A program made the translations under genes and the position numbers. DNA of 64,000 nt. Origin: Escherichia phage Mimir124. The notes under the pieces are model-generated. The model searched no databases and was not told where the DNA came from. It saw only the letters and a program-made list of their open reading frames with translations. This document shows, one piece after another, positions 15,786 through 25,494 of this stretch; the stretch's first letter is position 1, and every line of letters begins with the position of its first letter. The DNA lies in sequence record PQ310662.1; one strand, written 5' to 3'.

Positions 15786-18365
15786 ATGCGTTACATCACC
15801 TCTCAGGATACTGGTAAGTATCCTATTGCTATCCTCGGTCATCAAATCCGAAGGGAGGAGATGATTAAAACCTACCTGCTGCCTTATGACCTAAGCATGG
15901 AAGATTTCATCTTCCTTGAACTTCATTCTGCCCCTGGCAAGAAGAAAACTCCTGCAAGGGAGATTAAAGAGTTCATTCAGCAGGAACTACAACAAGTACT
16001 GGATGATGCAGAGACTCAGTACATTATCTGTACCGACTCTGACTACTTCAAAATACTGACTAAAGAAGCTAAAGCAGAGGCTAACCTCGGCTATGTTTGC
16101 GACTCAGTATGGGGTAAACAGAAGGTTATCTATACACCTAGCTACAGGCAGGTCTTTTATGACCCACCTGTGGTAAAAGCCAAGATTGCTCAGGGTATGG
16201 ATGCATTACTTAACCACATTCGTGGGCAGTATGCTGAACCAGGTCAGGGAATCATTGAGTTTGAAGCCTATCCAGATACACCCGAAAAGATTAAAGCCTG
16301 GCTAGACCAGTTGCTTGAGATGAATAAGCCTCTGGCTATAGACATCGAATCATTCGGTTTAAAGCACTATAACGCAGGCATAGGAACGATTACGTTCTGT
16401 TGGAGCAAGACACAAGGCATAGCCTTTAATGTGGACTACGAGCCAATTAAGGGGGCTACTGAGGCTCCTTATGGGCGTATTAACAGGAATGATGTTGTTC
16501 GTAACCTGTTGCGTGAGTTCTTCATTAAGTACACTCAACGGCAGATGTATCACAACATTAGCTATGACGTGTACATACTTATCTATCAGTTATTCATGGA
16601 TAACCTGATTGATACGGAAGGCTTACTACATGGCATGGATATCATGCTACGTAATTGGGACTGTACTAAGTTAATCACCTACCTGGCTACTAACAGTTGT
16701 GCTGGCAATCACCTTAGTCTGAAAGAACAGGCCCAAGAGTATGCTGGTAACTACGCTCAGGATGATATTAAAGACATTCGTCTTATTCCTAATGAGCAAC
16801 TGCTACGCTACAACCTCATTGATGGTTTGTGTACGTGGTACACCTACGAGAAGCACTGGGATACTCTCATTGCTGATGACCAACTGGATGTTTACAACAA
16901 CATCTTTAAACCAGCCTGTGAAGACATTATTCAGATGCAGTTAACCGGTATGCCCATGAATATGGAAACCGTTAACCAAGTAGCTGAAGAGATGGAAACT
17001 GACAGGAACCAGGCTCTGAAAACTATTCGTGAGTCTAAGCTCATGAAGAATTTCACCCTGATGCTTCGTCAGGAATGGGTAGATGATAAGAATGCTAAGC
17101 TCAAGAAGAAACAAGTAACACTTGCTGACTGTGACATCGAGTTTAACCCAAACTCTGGTCCACAATTACAAAAACTGTTATTTGATTATATTGGCTTACC
17201 AGTTCTTGGTCTTACTAAGAGCAAGCAACCTGCTACTGACGGTGACACTATTAAAGCACTGCGTACACATACGCAGAGTGAAGATGTTAAGGAACTGCTC
17301 AATGCACTTATCGACTATAAGCTCGTGGATAAGATTATCACTAGCTTCATCCCGGCTTTTAGAAATGCCCAACCTGGGCCAGATGGTTGGCACTACCTAT
17401 TCGGCAACCTCAATTTGGGGGGAACAGTTTCTGGTAGATTATCTGCCTCTGAGCCAAACCTGCAAACCATACCGTCTGGTTCTAAGTATGCCAAGAAGAT
17501 TAAGAAATGCTTCGAAGCACCACCAGGTTGGATATTTTGTGGACTGGACTTTGCGAGCCTTGAAGACCGTATCTCAGCTTTAACTACTAAAGACCCACAG
17601 AAGCTTAAGGTATATACCGATGGCTACGATGGTCACAGTCTCCGTGCATATGCTTACTTCGGTGAGCAGATGCCAGACATAGTAGATACTGTAGAATCCA
17701 TTAACTCCATTCAGCATAAGTACAAATCCTTACGTAGTGACTCGAAGGCTCCAACCTTCCTACTTACCTATGGTGGTACATATATGGGCTTAATGAAAAA
17801 CTGTGGCTTCTCTGAAGAGAAGGCTAAGACTACAGAGAAGCGTTATCACGACCTCTATGTGGTAAGTGATATGTGGGTTCAGGCTAAGCTAGACGAAGCT
17901 GCCAAAACTGGTTATGTTACTGCTGCATTTGGTTTGAGAGTGCGTACTCCTTTACTGGCTCAGGTATTACGTGGGACATGTAAGACTCCATATGAAGCAG
18001 AAGCTGAAGGCAGAACTGCTGGCAATGCCTTGGGGCAAAGCTGGTGTCTACTGAATAACCGTGCTGGTTCAGAGTTTATGCGTAAAGTCAGAGCCAGTGA
18101 GTTCAGGCTAGATATACGCCCTAGTATTCACATTCATGATGCACAGTACTTCATGATTCGTGACAACATGGATACCTTGCAGTACACGAACAAGCATTTG
18201 GTTGAAGCCGTTAACTGGCAAGACCATCCTGATATTGCTCATCCAGAAGTTGGTTTGGGCGGGGAACTATCCTTGTTCTACCCAACGTGGGCTAACGAGA
18301 TTGAGATTCCAAATCACGCTACCCCAGAAGAAGTTCATCAAATAATTCAAAAGGCATTCGCATGA
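15786..18365 (+). CDS. family A DNA polymerase with 3'-5' exonuclease domain
   Basis: Exo motifs AIDIESFGL and YHNISYDVYIL; pol motif A DFASLEDRI, motif B RSDSKAPTFLLTYGG, motif C HIHDAQYF; 859 aa. Confidence 0.8.
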   Translation: MRYITSQDTGKYPIAILGHQIRREEMIKTYLLPYDLSMEDFIFLELHSAPGKKKTPAREIKEFIQQELQQVLDDAETQYIICTDSDYFKILTKEAKAEANLGYVCDSVWGKQKVIYTPSYRQVFYDPPVVKAKIAQGMDALLNHIRGQYAEPGQGIIEFEAYPDTPEKIKAWLDQLLEMNKPLAIDIESFGLKHYNAGIGTITFCWSKTQGIAFNVDYEPIKGATEAPYGRINRNDVVRNLLREFFIKYTQRQMYHNISYDVYILIYQLFMDNLIDTEGLLHGMDIMLRNWDCTKLITYLATNSCAGNHLSLKEQAQEYAGNYAQDDIKDIRLIPNEQLLRYNLIDGLCTWYTYEKHWDTLIADDQLDVYNNIFKPACEDIIQMQLTGMPMNMETVNQVAEEMETDRNQALKTIRESKLMKNFTLMLRQEWVDDKNAKLKKKQVTLADCDIEFNPNSGPQLQKLLFDYIGLPVLGLTKSKQPATDGDTIKALRTHTQSEDVKELLNALIDYKLVDKIITSFIPAFRNAQPGPDGWHYLFGNLNLGGTVSGRLSASEPNLQTIPSGSKYAKKIKKCFEAPPGWIFCGLDFASLEDRISALTTKDPQKLKVYTDGYDGHSLRAYAYFGEQMPDIVDTVESINSIQHKYKSLRSDSKAPTFLLTYGGTYMGLMKNCGFSEEKAKTTEKRYHDLYVVSDMWVQAKLDEAAKTGYVTAAFGLRVRTPLLAQVLRGTCKTPYEAEAEGRTAGNALGQSWCLLNNRAGSEFMRKVRASEFRLDIRPSIHIHDAQYFMIRDNMDTLQYTNKHLVEAVNWQDHPDIAHPEVGLGGELSLFYPTWANEIEIPNHATPEEVHQIIQKAFA

Positions 18366-18667
18366 CTAAAAGTACTAAAGAAACCGTCGTCAAAAAATAT
18401 CATTGGATGGTGGCAGCACAGGTAATCTTCCAGCTTCCTAAAGCCGATGATGGTTCCCTGCTTACCATGAACACAATGCTGCTCACTGACGAACCTCATG
18501 TGACGTATAAAGATTTGGCCCGTGTCAATCACTCTCTGAAGATTAGTCTGGACCAGCGTTTTGATACTTCGGTTGACCTGAAAGACATTGTTTATCTGTC
18601 CATCAATAACCTGGGTCTGATGTCTGAACCAGAGTTCCAGGCAAACATGATTCCCAAGGGGGAATAA
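18362..18667 (+). CDS. hypothetical protein
   Basis: 101-aa ORF, start overlaps polymerase stop. Confidence 0.35.
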   Translation: MTKSTKETVVKKYHWMVAAQVIFQLPKADDGSLLTMNTMLLTDEPHVTYKDLARVNHSLKISLDQRFDTSVDLKDIVYLSINNLGLMSEPEFQANMIPKGE

Positions 18668-19140
18668 TGACTAAGCTCTCCGGCGGATTGAATAACTGGT
18701 ATGTAGTACCAATTAAGAACCCCCAACGGAAAGAGCAAGAGCCATACCAAGCAGAGTGTGAGGATATTATCCAAGCACTGGGCATGACCTTTGATGAAGG
18801 TTGTGCCTTTAAAGCTCTATGGCGAAACGCTGCTGCCCGTATGGGTAATGGTAAACCTGGAAACACTACAGTGTATGATTGTGAGAAGCTAGTTCATTAT
18901 GCTAATCGTCTACTTGCTAAAGCTTACCTTGATTCTAGGGATAGTGGTGAAGTAGTTAAGTTGGAAGAATCCTGTACCGATTGGGTTTACAGTAATGAAA
19001 GACCTTCCTTCATGCGTAAGTGGAAGAAGATTGAGTATGAGTACAAAAACCATTGTAAAACATACACATGCTTTTCGGGAGAACCACAGTTCCAGTCTAT
19101 CAATTGGGCAGATATTTACCGTTATAGGATTTTCTACTAA
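18667..19140 (+). CDS. hypothetical Cys-rich protein
   Basis: 157-aa ORF with several Cys (CEDI, CEKL, CTDW, HCKTYTC). Confidence 0.35.
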   Translation: MTKLSGGLNNWYVVPIKNPQRKEQEPYQAECEDIIQALGMTFDEGCAFKALWRNAAARMGNGKPGNTTVYDCEKLVHYANRLLAKAYLDSRDSGEVVKLEESCTDWVYSNERPSFMRKWKKIEYEYKNHCKTYTCFSGEPQFQSINWADIYRYRIFY

Positions 19141-19211
19141 TGAAAATAACCAACAACCATGATGTCTCACTGGCCCTGGCTGTATGGCTATTGCATGACG
19201 AGTAACTAATT

Positions 19212-19709
19212 ATGAAACAGAGGATTGCCCATGACAGGCTTTTACAGCTTGTTAGTTATGACCCTATTTCCGGGATTTTTACTCGTAGGAATACCGGAAA
19301 GGTATCCGGTTACCTAATGAAGAGTGGCTACATTCAACTTCGTGTGGATAGCGTGTTGTACTATGGGCATATCCTTGCATGGTTTTATGTGCACGGTGTA
19401 TGGCCTACGGATAGGATTGACCATAAGGACAATATACGCCATCACAACTGGATAGATAACCTCAGAGAAGCGACCCACAAGCAGAATAACCAGAGTGCTG
19501 TTTTATCTAAAACAAACACATCTGGGTTTAAGGGTGTCTCCTTTTCAAAGAGTATGGGTAAGTACAGAGCAACTATTTGGGTTAATAGCAAACCAATTAC
19601 ATTAGGTTACACAGATAACCCAATAGAGGCTGCTGTTCTCTACGATGAAGCTGCTGTAACTCATTATGGTGAGTTTGCCAAAACCAACAAACAATTAGGA
19701 CTGTTATGA
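19212..19709 (+). CDS. HNH homing endonuclease with AP2 domain (copy 3)
   Basis: DRIDHKDNIRHHNWIDNLREATHKQN (HNH) and SGFKGVSFSKSMGKYRATIWVNSKPITLGYTDNPIEAAVLYDEAA (AP2-like). Confidence 0.65.
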   Translation: MKQRIAHDRLLQLVSYDPISGIFTRRNTGKVSGYLMKSGYIQLRVDSVLYYGHILAWFYVHGVWPTDRIDHKDNIRHHNWIDNLREATHKQNNQSAVLSKTNTSGFKGVSFSKSMGKYRATIWVNSKPITLGYTDNPIEAAVLYDEAAVTHYGEFAKTNKQLGLL

Positions 19710-20686
19710 AACTTACTAACAATCATGATGTTAGTCTTGCACTAGCTGTTTGGCTTGTTACAGATGATTATGATTACGTAGACAATCCTAAGTACCTGTC
19801 TGCTACTACATTGCTTAAACCTATTAAGCAAATCGTCATGAAGCATCGTGTAGATTTTAGTGACCAGTCAATTGATGTTATGGATTTCGTATCCACATCA
19901 ATGGGTACTGGCTTACATGACTCTATAGAGAAAGCCTGGAAGCTAGGTCATAAGACTGCATTGAAGAAGTTGGGTTACCCTCAACGAGTAATTGATGCAG
20001 TAGTCATTAACCCAACCAAAGCAGACTTTGCTACTAATCCTGACCTTATCCCAATCTACATTGAACAACGTGGAACCAAGCAGGTTAAGGGATGGACTAT
20101 TGGTGGTAAATTCGACATCGTAACAGAAGGTCTGTTACAAGACTTCAAGTCTACCTCAACCTATTCTTGGGTTGCTGGTTCCCGTGATGATGAACACAAG
20201 ATGCAAGGCAGCTTGTACCGTTGGATTCACAACGACATCATTACTGAGGATGTAATTCGTATTAACTACATCTTCACTGACTTCATGAAACACATGGCTA
20301 ACAGCAATCCGAACTATCCTGCTAATCGTATTATGCATAAGGATATACCGTTGCTGTCTGTCGAGAAGACTGAGCGTTGGGTGGAAGAGAAGATTCACTT
20401 AATCGAAAAGTACTGGGATGCACCTGAAGAGGAAATCCCTGAATGTACTGACGAGGAGTTGTGGCGAACAGAGCCACAGTTCAAATACTTCTCTGATGCT
20501 TCTAAGGTAGATGTACCTGGAGCCAGAAGTACCAAAAACTTTGACGATATGGCATCTGCCCGTATCTTCATGGCTGAAAAGGGTGGCAAGGGTGCTATCA
20601 AGGTCGTGGAGGGACAGGTTAAAAGATGTCTTTACTGCCCTGTCGCTTCTATTTGCAAACAAAGAGAGAGATATTTTCCATCATGA
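19706..20686 (+). CDS. putative PD-(D/E)xK nuclease with C-terminal CxxCx5C cysteine cluster (Cas4/RecB-like)
   Basis: D..E.K-like core (KFDIVTEGLLQDFK) and C-terminal KRCLYCPVASICK = C-x2-C-x5-C plus upstream Cys (PECTDEE). Confidence 0.4.
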   Translation: MKLTNNHDVSLALAVWLVTDDYDYVDNPKYLSATTLLKPIKQIVMKHRVDFSDQSIDVMDFVSTSMGTGLHDSIEKAWKLGHKTALKKLGYPQRVIDAVVINPTKADFATNPDLIPIYIEQRGTKQVKGWTIGGKFDIVTEGLLQDFKSTSTYSWVAGSRDDEHKMQGSLYRWIHNDIITEDVIRINYIFTDFMKHMANSNPNYPANRIMHKDIPLLSVEKTERWVEEKIHLIEKYWDAPEEEIPECTDEELWRTEPQFKYFSDASKVDVPGARSTKNFDDMASARIFMAEKGGKGAIKVVEGQVKRCLYCPVASICKQRERYFPS

Positions 20687-22836
20687 GTATTGACCTTACC
20701 GGAGTAGTGCACCATCCAGCGATTGAAGAAATCGTAGATGTGCTCTGCAATAAAACCCAGAATAATGACCGGGGATTCTTCCGTGTCGAAGTAGCCTACT
20801 TCTTGGCTAAAATGGCATCCTGCATGGGTGCAACCATCGTAACTAAAGACCGTGGTGACCTGCCGGTAAACATCTACGCTATGGCGTTGGCTACATCTGG
20901 TTTCGGTAAAGGTCACTCGGTAAATATTATTGAAGACGGGTTCATGACTGGATTCCGTAAGCGATTTATGGAAGACACCATGCCCGTCATTGCAAATGAC
21001 CGATTATGGAAGATTGCTAACGAACGTGCTGCTCGTCAGGGTACGGACCAGAATGATGAGTTCGACAAAGTTGAAGCAGAGTATAAACGTGCTGGGGCAT
21101 TCCCATTCACGTTCGACTCTGGTACAGCACCTGCTGTAAAACAACTTCGACACAAGCTGCTTATGGCTGGTTGCGGTGCTATTAACTTACAGATTGATGA
21201 GATTGGTTCCAACCTCATTGCCAACGTTGAAGTACTTAACCTGTTCCTTGAGTTGTATGACCAGGGGAAAGTAAAACAGAAGTTAACCAAGAACACTGCT
21301 GAAAGTATTCGTGGCGAAGAACTGGATGGTAAGACTCCTGCTAACCTGCTGCTGTTCGGTACTCCGAGTAAGCTGCTGGATGGTGGTCAGACTGAAGACC
21401 AGTTCTATGACTTCCTTGATACAGGGTATGCACGTCGTTGTCTGTTTGCCATTGGGCATTTAGACAAGCGAGCACATGCAACGATGACCCCGGAAGAAAT
21501 CTACCGTAACCTGATTAAGCAGGATAACGTTCAGTCTCTTGGTAAGTGGGCTAACCACTTCCATAGTCTGGCTGACCCAAACCTGTTTGGCTTTAAGATG
21601 ATTGTGGAAGATGCAGTGGGTATTGCTCTGATTACTTACAAAATTGATTGTGAGAAAAAAGCAGAAGCTATGGCTGACCACGAAGAAATTCGTAAGGCTG
21701 AAATATCCCACCGTTACTTCAAGGCTCTTAAGCTGGCAGGTGCACTGGCGTTTGTTGATCAGAGTTCATTCATTGAGATGTCTCACCTTAAACAAGCAAT
21801 CTTGCTCGTAGAAGAATCTGGGGCAGCATTCCAGGGTATTCTCAATCGTGAGAAAGCCTATGTGAAGCTGGCTAAGTACATTGCCTCCGTAGGCAAAGAG
21901 GTTACTCATGCTGACTTGCTGGAGTCATTACCTTTCTATAAGAGTGGCAATGCGGCTCGTAATGAGATGATGACTCTTGCTACAGCATGGGGTTACAAAC
22001 AGCACATCATTATTAAGAAGACCTTCAATGAGGGTATTGAGTTCTTCCGTGGTGAGACTCTGAAAGAGACTGACACCAATGAGATGATAGTGGCATATAG
22101 TGATAGCTTTGCTTATGACTATGTTGGTGAACGTGTACCGTTTGACCAGCTACATGTATTAACCCAAGCTCCCGGTATGCACTGGGTGAACCATCATATG
22201 AAGAATGGACATCGTTCTGAAGAGAACGTTATCCCAGGATTTAACATGATTGTTATTGACTGTGATGGTGGAGTACCACTGCATACGTGCCATGAACTGA
22301 TGAAGGAATATAAGTTCATGACCTATACCACTAAGCGTCATACCGACGAAGAGAACCGCTTCCGTCTGATTATTCCAATGAACTATGAGCTACACCTCGA
22401 CACTGAGGAATACAAAGAGTTCATGAATAACGTTATGGCTTGGCTACCATTCGAAACGGATGAGTCTGCTAACCAACGAGCCAAGAAGTGGATGTCCTGT
22501 GAGACTGGTTCCTATCATTACAACCTTGATGCGAATCTGTTGGATGTACGTGACTTTATTCCTCGTACCAGTAAGAACGAGCAGTTCCAGAACCAGATGA
22601 AGGAAGTACAGTCGCTGGACAATCTGGAGCGTTGGTTCGCTGGTCGTATTGCCTCCGGTAATCGTAATAATCAAATGATTAAGTACGCACTGGCATTAGT
22701 AGACAGTGGTTGGGACTTTGCTCAAGTACAGCAAGCCGTCTATTCATTCAATAAGAAACTGGCTAATCCATTGCCAGATGATGAATTGAATTCAACCGTA
22801 ATGGTCACCGTGGCTAAACGCTTCGCTGGCAAGTAA
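20683..22836 (+). CDS. putative DNA primase (primase-polymerase-like)
   Basis: 717 aa from ATG 20683 (ATGA overlap with upstream stop); hhhDxD-like motif VIDCDGGV; position between polymerase and SSB-like genes. Confidence 0.4.
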   Translation: MSIDLTGVVHHPAIEEIVDVLCNKTQNNDRGFFRVEVAYFLAKMASCMGATIVTKDRGDLPVNIYAMALATSGFGKGHSVNIIEDGFMTGFRKRFMEDTMPVIANDRLWKIANERAARQGTDQNDEFDKVEAEYKRAGAFPFTFDSGTAPAVKQLRHKLLMAGCGAINLQIDEIGSNLIANVEVLNLFLELYDQGKVKQKLTKNTAESIRGEELDGKTPANLLLFGTPSKLLDGGQTEDQFYDFLDTGYARRCLFAIGHLDKRAHATMTPEEIYRNLIKQDNVQSLGKWANHFHSLADPNLFGFKMIVEDAVGIALITYKIDCEKKAEAMADHEEIRKAEISHRYFKALKLAGALAFVDQSSFIEMSHLKQAILLVEESGAAFQGILNREKAYVKLAKYIASVGKEVTHADLLESLPFYKSGNAARNEMMTLATAWGYKQHIIIKKTFNEGIEFFRGETLKETDTNEMIVAYSDSFAYDYVGERVPFDQLHVLTQAPGMHWVNHHMKNGHRSEENVIPGFNMIVIDCDGGVPLHTCHELMKEYKFMTYTTKRHTDEENRFRLIIPMNYELHLDTEEYKEFMNNVMAWLPFETDESANQRAKKWMSCETGSYHYNLDANLLDVRDFIPRTSKNEQFQNQMKEVQSLDNLERWFAGRIASGNRNNQMIKYALALVDSGWDFAQVQQAVYSFNKKLANPLPDDELNSTVMVTVAKRFAGK

Positions 22837-22892
22837 GAAAACAGGAGTCTTTCTTTGGTTTGAAGGACTCCTAAACTAAACGAGGAAAAATA

Positions 22893-23645
22893 ATGTCCGA
22901 AGAAATCTCCAATGATATGAACACTCAGCTAATCCTGATTGCAGGATTCTCAGCGAGTGGTAAATCAGCATCACTGCGTAATATCCGGAACCAGGAACGC
23001 TGGTTGTATCTGAATACAGAAGCAGGTAAGCGTCTACCTTTCCGTAATAAGTTCAACACCTACAACATTGAAGACCCATATCAGATTTGGGAAGCATTTG
23101 ATGTTGCATCTCCAGGGGGTGAAATGGCAGACGATGTTGATGGTATCATTATCGACTCTGCCACCTTCATGATGGACATGCTGGAATCCCAGTATGTATT
23201 GCCATCTGCTAATACCCAGAAAGCCTGGGGGGACTTTGCACAGTTCTTTAAAATACTGCTGCAACAGAAAGTCGTTAAGTTTGGTAAGCCAGTAATCATT
23301 ACTGCCCATGCTAAAGATGAACTCGACGAAGCTGCTGGTGTGATGAAAACATTCATCCCAGTGAAAGGCTCCCTGAAGAATAATGGCCTTGAGGCTTACT
23401 TCTCTACAGTGGTTTACGCAGAACGCGTAGATATTAAGGAACTGGAGAAGTATGGCAACAAGATGCTTGATATTACGGAAGAAGAACGTGACTTAGGCTA
23501 TAAGCACGTATTCCAGACACGTCCAACCAAGAAGTCTGTTGGTAAACGTCTTCGCTCACCGATGGGTATGTTCGATAAGTCTCAGACTTACATTGATAAT
23601 GATGCCCAGAAACTCTTAGACCATCTGGCTGAATACTACGCTTAA
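22893..23645 (+). CDS. P-loop NTPase
   Basis: Walker A GFSASGKSA near N-terminus, hhhhD Walker B-like IIIDSAT. Confidence 0.45.
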   Translation: MSEEISNDMNTQLILIAGFSASGKSASLRNIRNQERWLYLNTEAGKRLPFRNKFNTYNIEDPYQIWEAFDVASPGGEMADDVDGIIIDSATFMMDMLESQYVLPSANTQKAWGDFAQFFKILLQQKVVKFGKPVIITAHAKDELDEAAGVMKTFIPVKGSLKNNGLEAYFSTVVYAERVDIKELEKYGNKMLDITEEERDLGYKHVFQTRPTKKSVGKRLRSPMGMFDKSQTYIDNDAQKLLDHLAEYYA

Positions 23646-23685: not shown

Positions 23686-24489
23686 ATGTCACTGTTCGGT
23701 AACTTGAAAGAAAAGACCAAAAACGTTGAAGCTGCAAAAGACACTCTTGGTGGTGGTGGCTTCGGTGCAAAAGAATCTGATATCTACACCGGTACTGTAA
23801 AAGTAGCTTACGTAGGTAAAGCTGATTCTGGTGCAGACTGGATGCAGTTAATCATTGAAAACCTGAAAGGTTCTGATGGCAATGATGCTGGTGAGTTCCG
23901 TGCCCAGGTATACTTCACTTCCGGTAATGCTAAAGGCAATAAGCCGACTTACGAGAAGAATGGTAAAGAGTACTTCCTGCCTGGTTACACTGTCATTAAT
24001 GACATGATGCTGATGGCTACTGGTTGTGAACTGCCAGATGCAGACTTCGAAGAGAAGATTGTTAAAGTCTATGACTTCGACCTGAAAGCAGAAACCAATA
24101 AGTCTGTCATGGTTCCAGTTGATCTGGTGGGCCAGACTGTTACCTTCGCTCTGGAAAAGGTTCTGGAAGCTAAGCAGGTTAAGGGTGATAACGGTTACGT
24201 TGACTCCGGAGAAACTCGCGAAGTAAACGAGATTCAGAAAGTGTTTCACCCGGAACTGCTGGTTACAGTCGTCGAGGCTCAGGAAGCAGAGAAGGCTGAG
24301 AAAGAACTGACCCCAGAACTGGCTGTATTCTATACAGCATGGTTGGAAAAGAACAAAGGTAAAACCCGTGATAAGACCAAGGGTTCTGCTGGTGGTAATG
24401 GTAAAGGTGGCTTACCTCCTAAACCAGGTGCAGGTGCTGGCACAGGTACTACTCCTGCTGGGGGTAAATCTCTGTTCGGTAAGCGTTAA
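23686..24489 (+). CDS. putative single-stranded DNA-binding protein (assignment by position and size)
   Basis: 267 aa, Gly-rich termini; sits where an SSB is expected in N4-like gene order; no OB-fold motif verified. Confidence 0.3.
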   Translation: MSLFGNLKEKTKNVEAAKDTLGGGGFGAKESDIYTGTVKVAYVGKADSGADWMQLIIENLKGSDGNDAGEFRAQVYFTSGNAKGNKPTYEKNGKEYFLPGYTVINDMMLMATGCELPDADFEEKIVKVYDFDLKAETNKSVMVPVDLVGQTVTFALEKVLEAKQVKGDNGYVDSGETREVNEIQKVFHPELLVTVVEAQEAEKAEKELTPELAVFYTAWLEKNKGKTRDKTKGSAGGNGKGGLPPKPGAGAGTGTTPAGGKSLFGKR

Positions 24490-25043
24490 TGAAAATCCCA
24501 ATTGTCGGTGCAGATATTAGTCTCCGCAATTGGGGATTAGCTCGTGGGATGCTGGACATTGAGTCCGGTGTCTTCGAGCAGGTCGAACTTAAACTGGTTC
24601 AAACTGAAGTTGACCACAACAAACAAGTTCGAACCAACTCCAAAGATATACAAGCTGCCCATGATTTGTTTCTTGGTTGCAAAGAATGGTTACGGTCTGC
24701 TAAAGCAGTGTTTGTAGAAGTACCAGTAGGCTCTCAGTCTGCTAACGGTATGAAGTCCTATGGTGTATGCGTAGGATTAATCGGTGCATTCCGTGCATTG
24801 GGTTGCCCAATCTTTGAAGTATCCCCAATTGAAAACAAACTTGCACTGGTCGGTGATAAAACTGCATCCAAAGACACGATGATTCGTGCTGCTCATGCCA
24901 TCTATCCCGAAGCCAACTGGCTCACGGATAAGAAAGGTAAACTCCTGAATAAGAATGAGCACTTAGCTGATGCAATCGGTGCAATCCACGCTGGGGTAAA
25001 TCTACCAGCTTTCCAGAATCTCATTAAATTAATAAAGGCATAA
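24489..25043 (+). CDS. RuvC-like Holliday junction resolvase
   Basis: N-terminal IVGADISLRNWG (catalytic Asp context), FVEVPVGSQ, and C-terminal NEHLADAIGAIHAG resembling the RuvC DAxDAxAIA motif. Confidence 0.5.
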   Translation: MKIPIVGADISLRNWGLARGMLDIESGVFEQVELKLVQTEVDHNKQVRTNSKDIQAAHDLFLGCKEWLRSAKAVFVEVPVGSQSANGMKSYGVCVGLIGAFRALGCPIFEVSPIENKLALVGDKTASKDTMIRAAHAIYPEANWLTDKKGKLLNKNEHLADAIGAIHAGVNLPAFQNLIKLIKA

Positions 25044-25044
25044 T

Positions 25045-25494
25045 ATGCAAATCGTTCTGAACCAGTCTGAAGTAGAAGCTGCTATTGAAGCTTATGTAAA
25101 TGAACAAGTTAATCTTGCCGGGGACATTAATATCCTGGTGAATGCAGATGGTACTGCCACTATTGGTATCAATGAAGAGGTCGGTCATAGTGATGACACT
25201 CCCCCCGTGGTAGAGAAGAAGACTCGCCGTCCTCGTAAGAACCCACAAGAAGCCAAACACCGTCCGGTAGAACCGGAACCGGTTGTTGAGGATGAAGCTG
25301 AAGAAGAGGTAAAGGAAGAAGAAACCCAGACCTCTACTGGTGGACCGAACGGGAGTTCTACGCCGGAACCTGAAGAAGCAGTAGCTGAACCAGAAGCACA
25401 AGAAGAAGTTGTGCAGGAGGAAGTTAAGGCAGAAGAACCAGCAGAGAAACCTGCTGCGAAGCCTTCACTGTTCGCTGGCCTAAAACGTAGTTAA
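25045..25494 (+). CDS. protein with structured N-terminus, basic patch and long acidic Glu/Pro-rich tail
   Basis: 149 aa; KKTRRPRKNPQEAKHR followed by EPEPVVEDEAEEEVKEEE..EEAVAEPEAQEEVVQEEVKAEEPAEKP. Confidence 0.4.
   Translation: MQIVLNQSEVEAAIEAYVNEQVNLAGDINILVNADGTATIGINEEVGHSDDTPPVVEKKTRRPRKNPQEAKHRPVEPEPVVEDEAEEEVKEEETQTSTGGPNGSSTPEPEEAVAEPEAQEEVVQEEVKAEEPAEKPAAKPSLFAGLKRS

Follow-up and report, generated by a model that had tools for sequence, protein, structure and literature searches.

Which function is served by the open reading frame at positions 19,706 to 20,686 of the window, the 64,000-nucleotide stretch of Escherichia phage Mimir124 DNA analysed here (PQ310662.1), and what does the cysteine cluster close to the C-terminus of its product hold? 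The window belongs to an N4-like coliphage (Gamaleyavirus) and shares 97% nucleotide identity with phage G7C. The product of the frame matches the phrog_2139 profile, labelled 'exonuclease', with an E-value of 1.3e-152 (residues 1-325 on profile positions 2-324 of 330) and is 70% identical in amino acid sequence to N4 gp42. By these matches it is the ortholog of the gp42 proteins of N4 and G7C, both of which are annotated as exonucleases, and its gene has the same place as in these two phages, in an N4-type replication module where it is flanked by gp41 and the gp43 primase. At a coverage of at least 80%, the gene is found in 471 phage records, nearly all of them N4-like and spanning many host genera, while the gp42-like clade comprises 479 clusters (50% identity) at E <= 1e-30, with thousands of more distant members. 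RefSeq, UniProt and PHROGs, as well as several papers on phage genomes, already list the family as 'exonuclease' or 'PD-(D/E)XK nuclease', and as a gene call the assignment brings nothing new. The earlier note on this DNA, made from the letters alone, was unaware of the existing N4 annotation.

The reading frame is a genuine gene. An AGGA motif resembling a Shine-Dalgarno sequence lies directly 5' of its ATG, which overlaps the stop codon of the upstream HNH gene (ATGA, 19,706-19,709), and the sense frame is the one kept at the protein level in more than 470 phage records. Its TGA (20,684-20,686) shares a second ATGA with the primase ATG at 20,683, confirming the overlap with the primase start that had been pointed out before; this ATG is the start in the G7C annotation as well as the one implied by the PHROG match, and a longer, mechanically listed primase frame from 20,626 probably does not begin at the true start. 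The same mechanical list contains antisense frames of 68-87 codons' worth of amino acids within the gene. A search of the region for Rfam families gave none, promoter-like and terminator-like sites did not exceed the expectation from shuffled sequence, and the only repeat was one 14-nt pair, attributable to chance. The features of the locus are collected in the table.

Features of the gp42-type gene and its neighbourhood (positions in the window)
Feature	Position	Strand	Basis
HNH_3 + AP2 free-standing homing endonuclease (G7C gp41.1)	19212..19709	+	Pfam HNH_3 36.9 bits; phrog_99 E 2e-60
gp42-type exonuclease gene	19706..20686	+	ORF list; 326 aa, 37.5 kDa, pI 6.2; ATG start
RecB motif I region G67-x3-H71-x3-E75, long helix 58-88	19904..19930	+	alignments
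~34-aa insertion, residues 85-118, N4-like branch only	19958..20059	+	alignment
Predicted catalytic core D137-x8-D146-F-K148, RecB motifs II and III, DIVTEGLLQDFK (residues 137-148)	20114..20149	+	conservation
QhxxY motif Q167-G-S-L-Y171	20204..20218	+	conservation
P-E-C247-T-D-E-E-L-W motif, non-canonical fourth Cys	20438..20464 (C247 codon 20444-20446)	+	alignment
Beta-beta-alpha-beta subdomain, ~residues 254-305, between C247 and Cys triad	20465..20620	+	
C308-x2-C311-x5-C317 triad, R-C308-L-Y-C311-P-V-A-S-I-C317	20627..20656	+	codons read directly
gp43 primase (PriCT_1)	20683..22836	+	phrog_2135 E 0; PriCT_1 30.5 bits; G7C annotation
gp44 Sak4-like ssDNA-annealing ATPase (AAA_24)	22893..23645	+	AAA_24 43.3 bits (GA 27); phrog_124 E 8e-50
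gp45 N4-type single-strand DNA-binding protein	23686..24489	+	phrog_743 E 5e-89
gp46 RuvC-like Holliday-junction resolvase	24489..25043	+	phrog_159 E 3.9e-42

General nuclease models match the sequence of the window protein weakly. Links to Cas4 at the sequence level come from phrog_1706, labelled 'CRISPR/Cas associated', which the window protein matches at E 4e-12, and from distant family members, for which the Cas4 models of PADLOC give E-values of 5e-6 to 2e-5. Searches against the sequences of solved structures with the single protein, a 28-sequence profile and a 76-sequence profile returned nothing relevant, NCBIfam gave no match for the window protein, and Pfam PDDEXK_1 (PF12705) was matched at 16.9 bits (E 0.0065) over the C-terminal two thirds, below its cutoff of 22, so that the PD-(D/E)xK assignment is carried by fold and motifs instead. 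The AlphaFold model (pLDDT 88.7, pTM 0.78) has a restriction-endonuclease-like alpha/beta core; Foldseek comparison with the PDB retrieved 4ic1 (E 5.8e-7), a Cas4 and the closest solved structure, as well as RecE (E 6e-5), and the fold matches in BFVD are viral Cas4-like and PD-(D/E)xK proteins. The Cas4/RecB-like nuclease fold had been proposed from the letters, with structure prediction named as its check, and both the Foldseek and the BFVD comparisons of the predicted model bear this proposal out.

Conservation was analysed in 151 sequences, i.e. the query and 150 representatives of clusters formed at 50% identity. D137, D146, K148, Q167 and Y171 are 100% conserved in this set and are also found in all 80 relatives from IMG/VR. 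Within the region of motif I, G67 and H71 are invariant in every alignment, including relatives at 25-28% identity, and E75 is conserved in 96%; the catalytic and cysteine positions are likewise invariant at this distance. The AlphaFold model puts D137, D146 and K148 on neighbouring beta strands (130-135, 138-140 and 143-150); the acidic/lysine segment to which they belong had earlier been suggested as a source of catalytic residues. The QhxxY motif has been named critical for Cas4 activity (PMC4176176). Residues 85-118 are present in the window protein and in N4 gp42 and correspond to a gap in the relatives from LE4, Pag-Yong1, Baldr and vir555. Sequence and predicted structure together mark gp42 as a putative stand-alone nuclease of the PD-(D/E)xK type, which in structure would belong to the 'iron-staple' class of RecB/Cas4.

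The cysteines set this family apart. The window protein has four in all, C247, C308, C311 and C317, and these are the C-x2-C-x5-C cluster and the fourth upstream cysteine that the earlier note had described. Of the 151 sequences, 148 have the triad (98% conservation of C308, C311 and C317) and 99% have C247; in relatives at 25-28% identity, C247, T248 and W253 are all invariant. A random protein of 326 amino acids with about 1.2% cysteine would contain a C-x2-C-x5-C motif approximately 5e-4 times by our own arithmetic; given this expectation and the conservation of all four residues, the triad is not due to chance. The further claim that the arrangement is that of Cas4 and AddB holds for one half of it. 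The spacing of the triad is identical in the Fe-S Cas4 enzymes SSO0001 (C188/C191/C197) and Pcal_0546 (C200/C203/C209) (PMC4176176). In the Cas4 and AddB families, however, the fourth cysteine lies N-terminal to motif I (PMC4176176, PMC3466216), whereas C247 follows the nuclease core and precedes the triad by about 60 residues. No cysteine precedes residue 247 in the query, no alignment column ahead of motif I reaches 5% cysteine, and 133 of the 151 sequences are devoid of any cysteine before this motif. This misplaced fourth cysteine, which is family-wide, is the unusual point of an otherwise ordinary gene.

The invariance of these residues, and the position of C247 and C308 on either flank of a compact inserted subdomain in the predicted structure, suggest that C247 and the triad converge on a single metal site. 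The metal centre bound there would be structural, with an Fe-S cluster as its likeliest form, and would close the C-terminal lobe around the small inserted subdomain. Zinc, or a purely structural knuckle devoid of Fe-S, is a possible if doubtful alternative, in which a nuclease of the Cas4 fold has departed from the 'iron-staple' class. It would be consistent with the loss of the canonical N-terminal ligand across the gp42 family, with a triad spacing that has drifted to C-x3-C or C-x4-C among non-N4 relatives, and with the zinc carried at the equivalent site by the structural relative 3L0A, which may nevertheless be an overexpression artefact according to those who discussed that structure; against it, SSO0001 and Pcal_0546, both of them Fe-S enzymes, have exactly the spacing seen in the N4-like branch. 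The gp42-like clade could tentatively be read as a rewired 'iron-staple' nuclease, in which the N-terminal ligand was lost and replaced by the cysteine of a P-E-C-T-D-E-E-x-W motif after the core, and the centre clamps the base of the ~50-aa subdomain instead of stapling the N- to the C-terminus. A motif of the form S-x-T-x-L-x-x-(x)-P would then occupy the place of C-P-R, which Cas4 presumably carries at the matching position. With one ligand moved and a domain placed inside the ligand loop, the family amounts to an experiment of nature on how plastic the metal cluster of Cas4/AddB-type nucleases is.

A role in counter-defence, in which gp42 subverts the CRISPR adaptation of the host, had been put forward as well. 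In its favour, no solved structure is closer than that of a Cas4, and one relative is annotated as 'CRISPR-associated exonuclease, Cas4 family'. Type I-E adaptation in E. coli is not known to use Cas4, which speaks against such a role. The window protein itself matches neither Pfam Cas_Cas4 nor any PADLOC Cas4 model, no cas genes are annotated near gp42 in G7C, where the locus is a phage replication module, and the gene lies in this module in every N4-like record examined, across many host genera, with recombination and replication genes as its neighbours. Hooton and Connerton (2015) are cited for a link between phage Cas4-like proteins and spacer acquisition by the host; Cas4-like phage proteins of the pfam12705 type are described as not CRISPR-associated (PMC5704561). 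Subversion of CRISPR adaptation is unsupported and, as an extremely improbable function of gp42, was rejected on the contrary points listed here.

The neighbourhood points to recombination instead. The gene for the Sak4-like gp44 begins about 2.2 kb downstream of gp42, with the primase gene in between, and is followed by that for the single-strand DNA-binding protein (SSB); gp44 is likely the partner of gp42. The gp46-like protein of N4 has been described as a RuvC-like resolvase (PMC7845610), and N4SSB is, by the title of Choi et al. (1995), needed for replication, recombination and late transcription. Genes for a dCTP deaminase and a thymidylate synthase lie upstream of gp42 in the early/middle region, and a nuclease in this company might degrade host DNA to scavenge nucleotides for phage synthesis. 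N4 is not known to break down the chromosome of its host, and a scavenger would not be expected to be paired so consistently with annealing proteins and resolvases; this very improbable reading was rejected on both counts. The known host shut-off of N4 acts on the clamp loader, as the title of Yano and Rothman-Denes (2011) indicates.

The same association is seen beyond the N4 group. In Leptospira phage LE4, the gp42 relative adjoins RecT (78 bits), in vir555 it overlaps the gene for a Rad52-family annealing protein, and in Planktothrix phage Pag-Yong1 an Erf gene is nearby. Among 80 non-N4 loci from IMG/VR, a Sak- or Erf-type annealing protein is encoded downstream on the same strand in 63, at a median gap of 388 nt (60-member neighbour cluster), and a RusA-like resolvase is present in 56. 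The 80 loci cannot be counted as separate lineages: clustering at 70% identity leaves 36 groups, 25 of them with an annealing neighbour, and clustering at 50% identity leaves 10, five of them with one. The neighbours were counted using an HMM built from the neighbour cluster (62 loci) and Pfam checks of divergent members, while BLAST with a single representative gave 30; the cluster is a mixture of Sak and Erf proteins joined by a common C-terminal tail. A primase-helicase-like frame occurs in 53 of the 80 loci, on the opposite strand and about 1.3 kb upstream. The role in recombination-dependent replication that the earlier note had envisaged is accordingly supported by gene context, both in the window and in distant relatives.

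The model that we consider probable on this basis is that gp42 is an N4-type Cas4-like exonuclease and, like lambda Exo or RecE in function, the 'exo' partner in a phage recombinase of two components. It builds on the fold, the motifs, their conservation, synteny and the co-occurrence with annealing proteins. D137, D146 and K148, together with H71/E75 and Q167/Y171, would make up a Mg2+-dependent active site for 5'-end degradation of DNA, allowing gp42 to resect 5' strands wherever the genome ends or is broken. The 3' single strands left behind would be coated by the N4-type SSB gp45 and annealed by gp44, and annealing via the terminal repeats would yield concatemers or primers for the phage DNA polymerase, with gp46 cutting the junctions. 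Characterised Cas4 enzymes are 5'->3' ssDNA exonucleases and have been proposed as makers of recombinogenic 3' tails (PMC3466216), and annealing by Sak4 is stimulated by its cognate SSB, a distant relative of N4 SSB (PMC5928155). Cleavage in both directions and endonuclease activity are also on record for some Cas4 enzymes (PMC4176176), so that a 5'->3' polarity of gp42 is not guaranteed; the polarity, like the metal and a physical partnership with gp44 and gp45, is extrapolated from the comparisons above.

Lagging-strand maturation represents a different use of the same activity: together with the primase and a polymerase that has no exonuclease of this kind, gp42 would remove RNA primers or 5' flaps in a Dna2- or FEN-like manner, instead of or besides resecting ends. 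The 4-nt overlap of gp42 with the primase gene would fit this role, and N4 replication also needs the 5'->3' exonuclease of host Pol I, which would suggest overlapping functions. The N4-type DNA polymerase is indeed devoid of a 5'->3' exonuclease domain (PMC2784036), which counts in favour of the recombinase model as well. Outside the N4 group, however, the same-strand downstream neighbour is the annealing protein and the primase-helicase-like frame lies on the other strand, and LE4, vir555 and Pag-Yong1 pair their gp42 relatives with RecT, Rad52-like and Erf proteins, respectively. Maturation is consequently regarded as unlikely, and the two roles are not mutually exclusive.

For the preferred recombinase model, two further consequences can be drawn. 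An N4-coded 5'->3' exonuclease was reportedly purified in 1986, and the searchable literature contains no paper tying it to an open reading frame. The early/middle region of G7C has no other annotated nuclease besides those of the HNH type, which leaves gp42, by elimination only, as the sole plausible candidate; if this identity with the historical enzyme is correct, that activity would gain a sequence. Furthermore, gp42, gp44, gp45 and gp46 can be framed as an exo, Sak4, SSB and resolvase recombination set of N4-like phages, which bears on concatemer formation by terminally redundant genomes and on the recombineering of N4-like therapeutic phages.

In comparison with known systems, no substantive difference separates the window protein from N4 gp42 and phrog_2139, and the gene order DNAP, gp40, gp41, gp42, primase, Sak4-like protein, SSB is common to both. 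The window and G7C carry the HNH-AP2 homing endonuclease gene inserted directly 5' of gp42, which is absent from N4 and several Gamaleyaviruses. Relative to SSO0001 of Sulfolobus solfataricus (PDB 4IC1), a decameric [4Fe-4S] Cas4 with 5'->3' ssDNA exonuclease activity, the identical C-terminal triad spacing contrasts with only 16-19% identity and no sequence-level match, and with a length of 326 instead of 202 residues. The N-terminal C32 of SSO0001 is missing in gp42, which has its fourth cysteine after the core, the ~50-aa subdomain between C247 and the triad and the ~34-aa insertion after motif I, and which occurs outside any cas gene or CRISPR context. The 'iron-staple' domains of AddB, AdnB, Dna2 and Exo5 staple an N-terminal helix to the C-terminus via the first cysteine, whereas all four putative ligands of gp42 come from its C-terminal third; AddB, AdnB and Dna2 are also fused to helicase or helicase-like domains, while gp42 stands alone. 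The DUF3799 putative exonuclease EUBREC_2131 (PDB 3L0A) was crystallised with zinc and no Fe-S, and its cysteine arrangement is described as AddB/Cas4-like, i.e. with the N-terminal ligand, from which gp42 differs. With lambda Exo (Red-alpha) and RecE, neither of which is known to have a cysteine metal cluster, gp42 shares the genomic logic of a nuclease gene beside that of an ssDNA-annealing protein. These two work with no partners other than Red-beta and RecT, whereas the annealing proteins found with gp42-like nucleases are of the Sak4, Sak, Erf, Rad52-like or RecT kind; in the rewired arrangement proposed above, the subdomain clamped by the metal centre could dock interchangeable annealing-protein or SSB partners, which would explain how one nuclease family came to be associated with five families of annealing proteins.

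The window is DNA of an N4-like coliphage (genus Gamaleyavirus); over nt 19000-23000, its identity is 97.3% to Escherichia phage vB_EcoP_G7C and 92-97% to several dozen relatives. The 326-aa ORF studied here is present in a mechanical ORF listing and is the counterpart of G7C gp42 (gp42 in the following), which the G7C record describes as 'similar to gp42 from phage N4'; RefSeq labels both the G7C and the N4 protein 'exonuclease'. In PHROGs, gp42 belongs strongly to phrog_2139 'exonuclease' (E 1.3e-152), next to a weak match to phrog_1706 'CRISPR/Cas system associated' (E 4e-12), and its family is N4 gp42/phrog_2139. The gp42 ATG and the stop codon of the preceding HNH gene share ATGA, as do the gp42 stop codon and the ATG of the primase gene gp43 at 20683, where G7C annotates the primase start. 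The mechanical listing places this start at 20626, 61 nt within gp42, which is unsupported because the PHROG match begins only at residue 22 of that ORF; the true overlap is therefore 4 nt, and the overlap with the primase start that had been noticed from the sequence holds in this form. In the gp42 region, no Rfam families and no meaningful repeats were found, and promoter-like and terminator-like sites are not in excess.

Across phages, gp42 is a real, conserved feature. Using tblastn, the protein was recovered at 80% coverage or more in 471 phage records. Nearly all of these are N4-like (their hosts include Vibrio, Pseudomonas, Escherichia, Klebsiella, Erwinia, Achromobacter and Rhizobium), with identities as low as 35%, and Leptospira phage LE4 was matched at 23.5% identity. 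When 1.84 billion cluster representatives were searched with a profile, 4033 clusters matched at E <= 1e-3, of which 479 reached E <= 1e-30. Among the query and its 150 best representatives (clustered at 50% identity), D137, D146, K148, Q167 and Y171 are 100% conserved, G67, H71 and C247 99%, and C308, C311 and C317 98%; the conserved residues stay invariant when the alignment takes in relatives from unrelated phages at only 25-28% identity. Following the motif I helix, the N4-like branch alone has an insertion of ~34 residues, which is missing in the distant relatives from phages LE4, Pag-Yong1, Baldr and vir555.

Sequence models are of little help for gp42: Pfam PDDEXK_1 scores 16.9 bits, under the cutoff of 22, NCBIfam gives no match, and sequence searches of the PDB found nothing relevant. 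An AlphaFold2 model, for which 28 sequences were aligned, is of high confidence (pLDDT 88.7, pTM 0.78), and this structure prediction, proposed as a check in the earlier note, resembles Cas4 4IC1 (E 5.8e-7) and RecE (E 6e-5) in Foldseek. The sole close match in a viral structure library is the homolog of an N4-like Delftia phage (TM 0.88), followed by viral PD-(D/E)xK and Cas4-like proteins. RecB motifs I-III and the QhxxY motif, on which Cas4 activity depends according to mutagenesis (PMC4176176), can be assigned in gp42, and the acidic/Lys core reads D137-IVTEGLLQ-D146-F-K148, exactly as first described. Given the agreement of model and Foldseek, the nuclease fold and the catalytic residues had been chosen correctly; by fold and motifs, gp42 belongs to the RecB-like PD-(D/E)xK superfamily.

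The only cysteines of gp42 are C247 and a C-terminal triad, C308-L-Y-C311-P-V-A-S-I-C317, which is the C-x2-C-x5-C pattern originally proposed and is spaced identically to those of Cas4 SSO0001 (C32/C188/C191/C197) and Pcal_0546 (C64/C200/C203/C209) (PMC4176176). The defining feature of Cas4, AddB and their relatives is a set of one near-N-terminal and three C-terminal cysteines, which jointly hold a [4Fe-4S] or [2Fe-2S] 'staple' (PMC4176176, PMC3466216). The claimed Cas4/AddB-type arrangement is accurate for the triad but not for the fourth cysteine, which follows the core, and the N-terminal ligand of Cas4/AddB is absent: gp42 has no cysteine before residue 247, and among the 151 aligned sequences no column before motif I reaches 5% cysteine, 133 having none there at all. 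The invariant C247 lies in a conserved P-E-C-T-D-E-E-x-W motif past the last core helix, and the ~50 residues up to the triad are modelled as beta-beta-alpha-beta. Since C247 and C308 flank this inserted compact subdomain, they are expected near each other in space, which points to a single four-cysteine metal site. This predicted site may bind Fe-S or Zn, and gp42 is a candidate member of the 'iron-staple' Fe-S class; in the related structure 3L0A, the corresponding site holds Zn, which could be an artefact (PMC3466216). The arrangement of C247 plus triad is kept in the relatives from LE4, Pag-Yong1, Baldr and vir555 and in 80 IMG/VR relatives, where the first triad gap is x4 in 56, x3 in 23 and x2 in one. 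Relatives outside the N4 group (IMG/VR loci L008-L087, L002 and L005) show R-C-x3/4-C-x5-C with a conserved Tyr preceding the second Cys, and the N4-like branch retains the canonical two-residue gap.

Features of gp42 and of its neighbours in the window
Feature	Position, nt (strand)	gp42 residues	Remarks
DNA polymerase	15786-18365		upstream of gp42
Two small conserved ORFs			between DNA polymerase and HNH-AP2 gene
gp41	18667-19140 (+)		157 aa; one of these two ORFs
HNH-AP2 homing endonuclease	19212-19709 (+)		directly upstream of gp42
gp42	19706-20686 (+)		
RecB motif I helix		G67/H71/E75	
N4-branch insertion	19958-20059	85-118	
RecB motif II		D137	
RecB motif III		D146-x-K148	
QhxxY		Q167...Y171	
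Segment between C247 and triad		strands 258-262, 277-279, 297-301; helix 282-291	AlphaFold2 model
gp43 primase			directly downstream of gp42; PriCT_1
gp44 AAA_24/Sak4-like annealing ATPase			after gp43; AAA_24 43.3 bits; phrog_124 E 8e-50
gp45 N4-type SSB			after gp44; phrog_743 E 5e-89
gp46 RuvC-like Holliday-junction resolvase	from 24489 (+)		phrog_159 E 4e-42
gp47	25045-25494 (+)		RusA-like, weak; phrog_14238 E 8e-7

The N4 SSB is said, in the title of a 1995 paper by Choi and colleagues, to be needed for replication and recombination. Sak4 is a RecA-core annealase, and its activity is raised by a cognate SSB, itself a distant relative of the N4 SSB (PMC5928155). The ORF after gp46, gp47, may form with it two junction-processing proteins in tandem. 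Upstream, the free-standing HNH_3 and AP2 gene (G7C gp41.1, between gp41 and gp42) is absent from N4 and from other phages including phi G17, IME11 and KKP 3715, and in those other phages the region is matched as two pieces at 87% coverage; it looks like a mobile insertion beside an essential gene. The N-terminal ~87 residues of gp41 are a module common to much longer phage proteins, among them phrog_7063 '3'-phosphatase, 5'-polynucleotide kinase' (E 7e-19), and gp41 relatives are sometimes annotated as PNK though gp41 is without the matching enzyme part. Near 28 kb, the sign of the GC skew reverses, consistent with the N4-type turn from rightward early/middle to leftward late genes, which start with the giant virion RNA polymerase.

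The strongest functional evidence for gp42 is the gene context of its relatives outside the N4 group. In LE4, RecT (PF03837, 78 bits) and one small ORF precede the gp42-like gene; in Caudoviricetes vir555 this gene and that of a Rad52-family annealing protein (76.9 bits) overlap, and in Planktothrix phage Pag-Yong1 an Erf protein (44.7 bits) is two genes away. At least 577 relatives emerged when IMG/VR was scanned with a profile built from the non-N4 members, and the best 80 loci were analysed (median pairwise nuclease identity 43%; 36 clusters at 70% identity). A same-strand member of one neighbour cluster occurs in 62 of them; this 60-member cluster lies at a median gap of 388 nt downstream of the nuclease, and its divergent members belong either to Sak (PF06378, 125 bits) or to Erf (39-65 bits). 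One more locus encodes an Erf protein (135 bits), and a RusA-like resolvase and a NinB/Orf mediator are found in 56 and 17 of the 80, respectively. The loci L008-L087 share a divergent layout: the forward strand carries nuclease, Sak or Erf annealase, a ~99-aa ORF (49/80) and sometimes NinB/Orf, and the opposite strand the RusA-like resolvase and, ~1.3 kb upstream of the nuclease, a ~585-aa primase-helicase-like ORF (53/80, judged by eye).

Five different annealase families are thus paired with a single gp42-like nuclease family, as is characteristic of the exonuclease half in two-component phage recombinases. Together with the gene context in the window, these neighbours support the role in recombination-dependent replication suggested in the earlier note. 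Characterised Cas4 enzymes are 5'->3' ssDNA exonucleases and proposed makers of recombinogenic 3' tails (PMC3466216), which, combined with the annealase pairing, suggests a 5'-resection model. Here, gp42 would resect 5' DNA ends, gp45 and gp44 would capture and anneal the 3' tails, e.g. via terminal repeats, the annealed tails would yield concatemers or prime the polymerase, and gp46 would resolve the junctions. As gp42 adjoins the primase, it may also, or instead, remove primers or flaps, which would be a reasonable function. Guinta and colleagues reportedly purified an N4-coded 5'->3' exonuclease in 1986. The N4-type polymerase is without a 5'->3' exonuclease domain (PMC2784036) and the G7C annotation has no further non-HNH nuclease in the early/middle region, which would leave gp42 as the only candidate for that enzyme. 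In roseophage vB_DshP-R7L, a gp42-like exonuclease and a gp45-like SSB were identified from virion SDS-PAGE bands (PMC11934525); their occurrence in virions is unexpected for replication enzymes and may reflect contamination or genuine packaging.

The other suggested role, subversion of host CRISPR adaptation, is unsupported: gp42 matches neither the PADLOC nor the Pfam Cas4 models, the gene lies in the replication module in every N4-like record examined and occurs across N4-like phages with many host genera, and its conserved neighbours are recombination genes, with nothing in favour of such interference. Cas4-like phage proteins of the pfam12705 type are not linked to CRISPR (PMC5704561).

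As the family is already annotated as exonuclease or PD-(D/E)XK nuclease in RefSeq, UniProt names and PHROGs, and in phage-genome papers (PMC7845610, PMC11934525), the nuclease finding itself is already known. What novelty is left lies in the changed place of the fourth ligand, along with the subdomain that the ligand loop encloses, and in the pairing with many annealases; a limited literature search found neither described. In function, gp42 would resemble a Cas4/AddB-type nuclease, yet should not be filed as Cas4; neither the N-terminal cysteine nor a match to Cas4 profiles nor a cas context was found when sought. The proposed exonuclease-half role is that of lambda Exo and RecE, which have the same fold as gp42.
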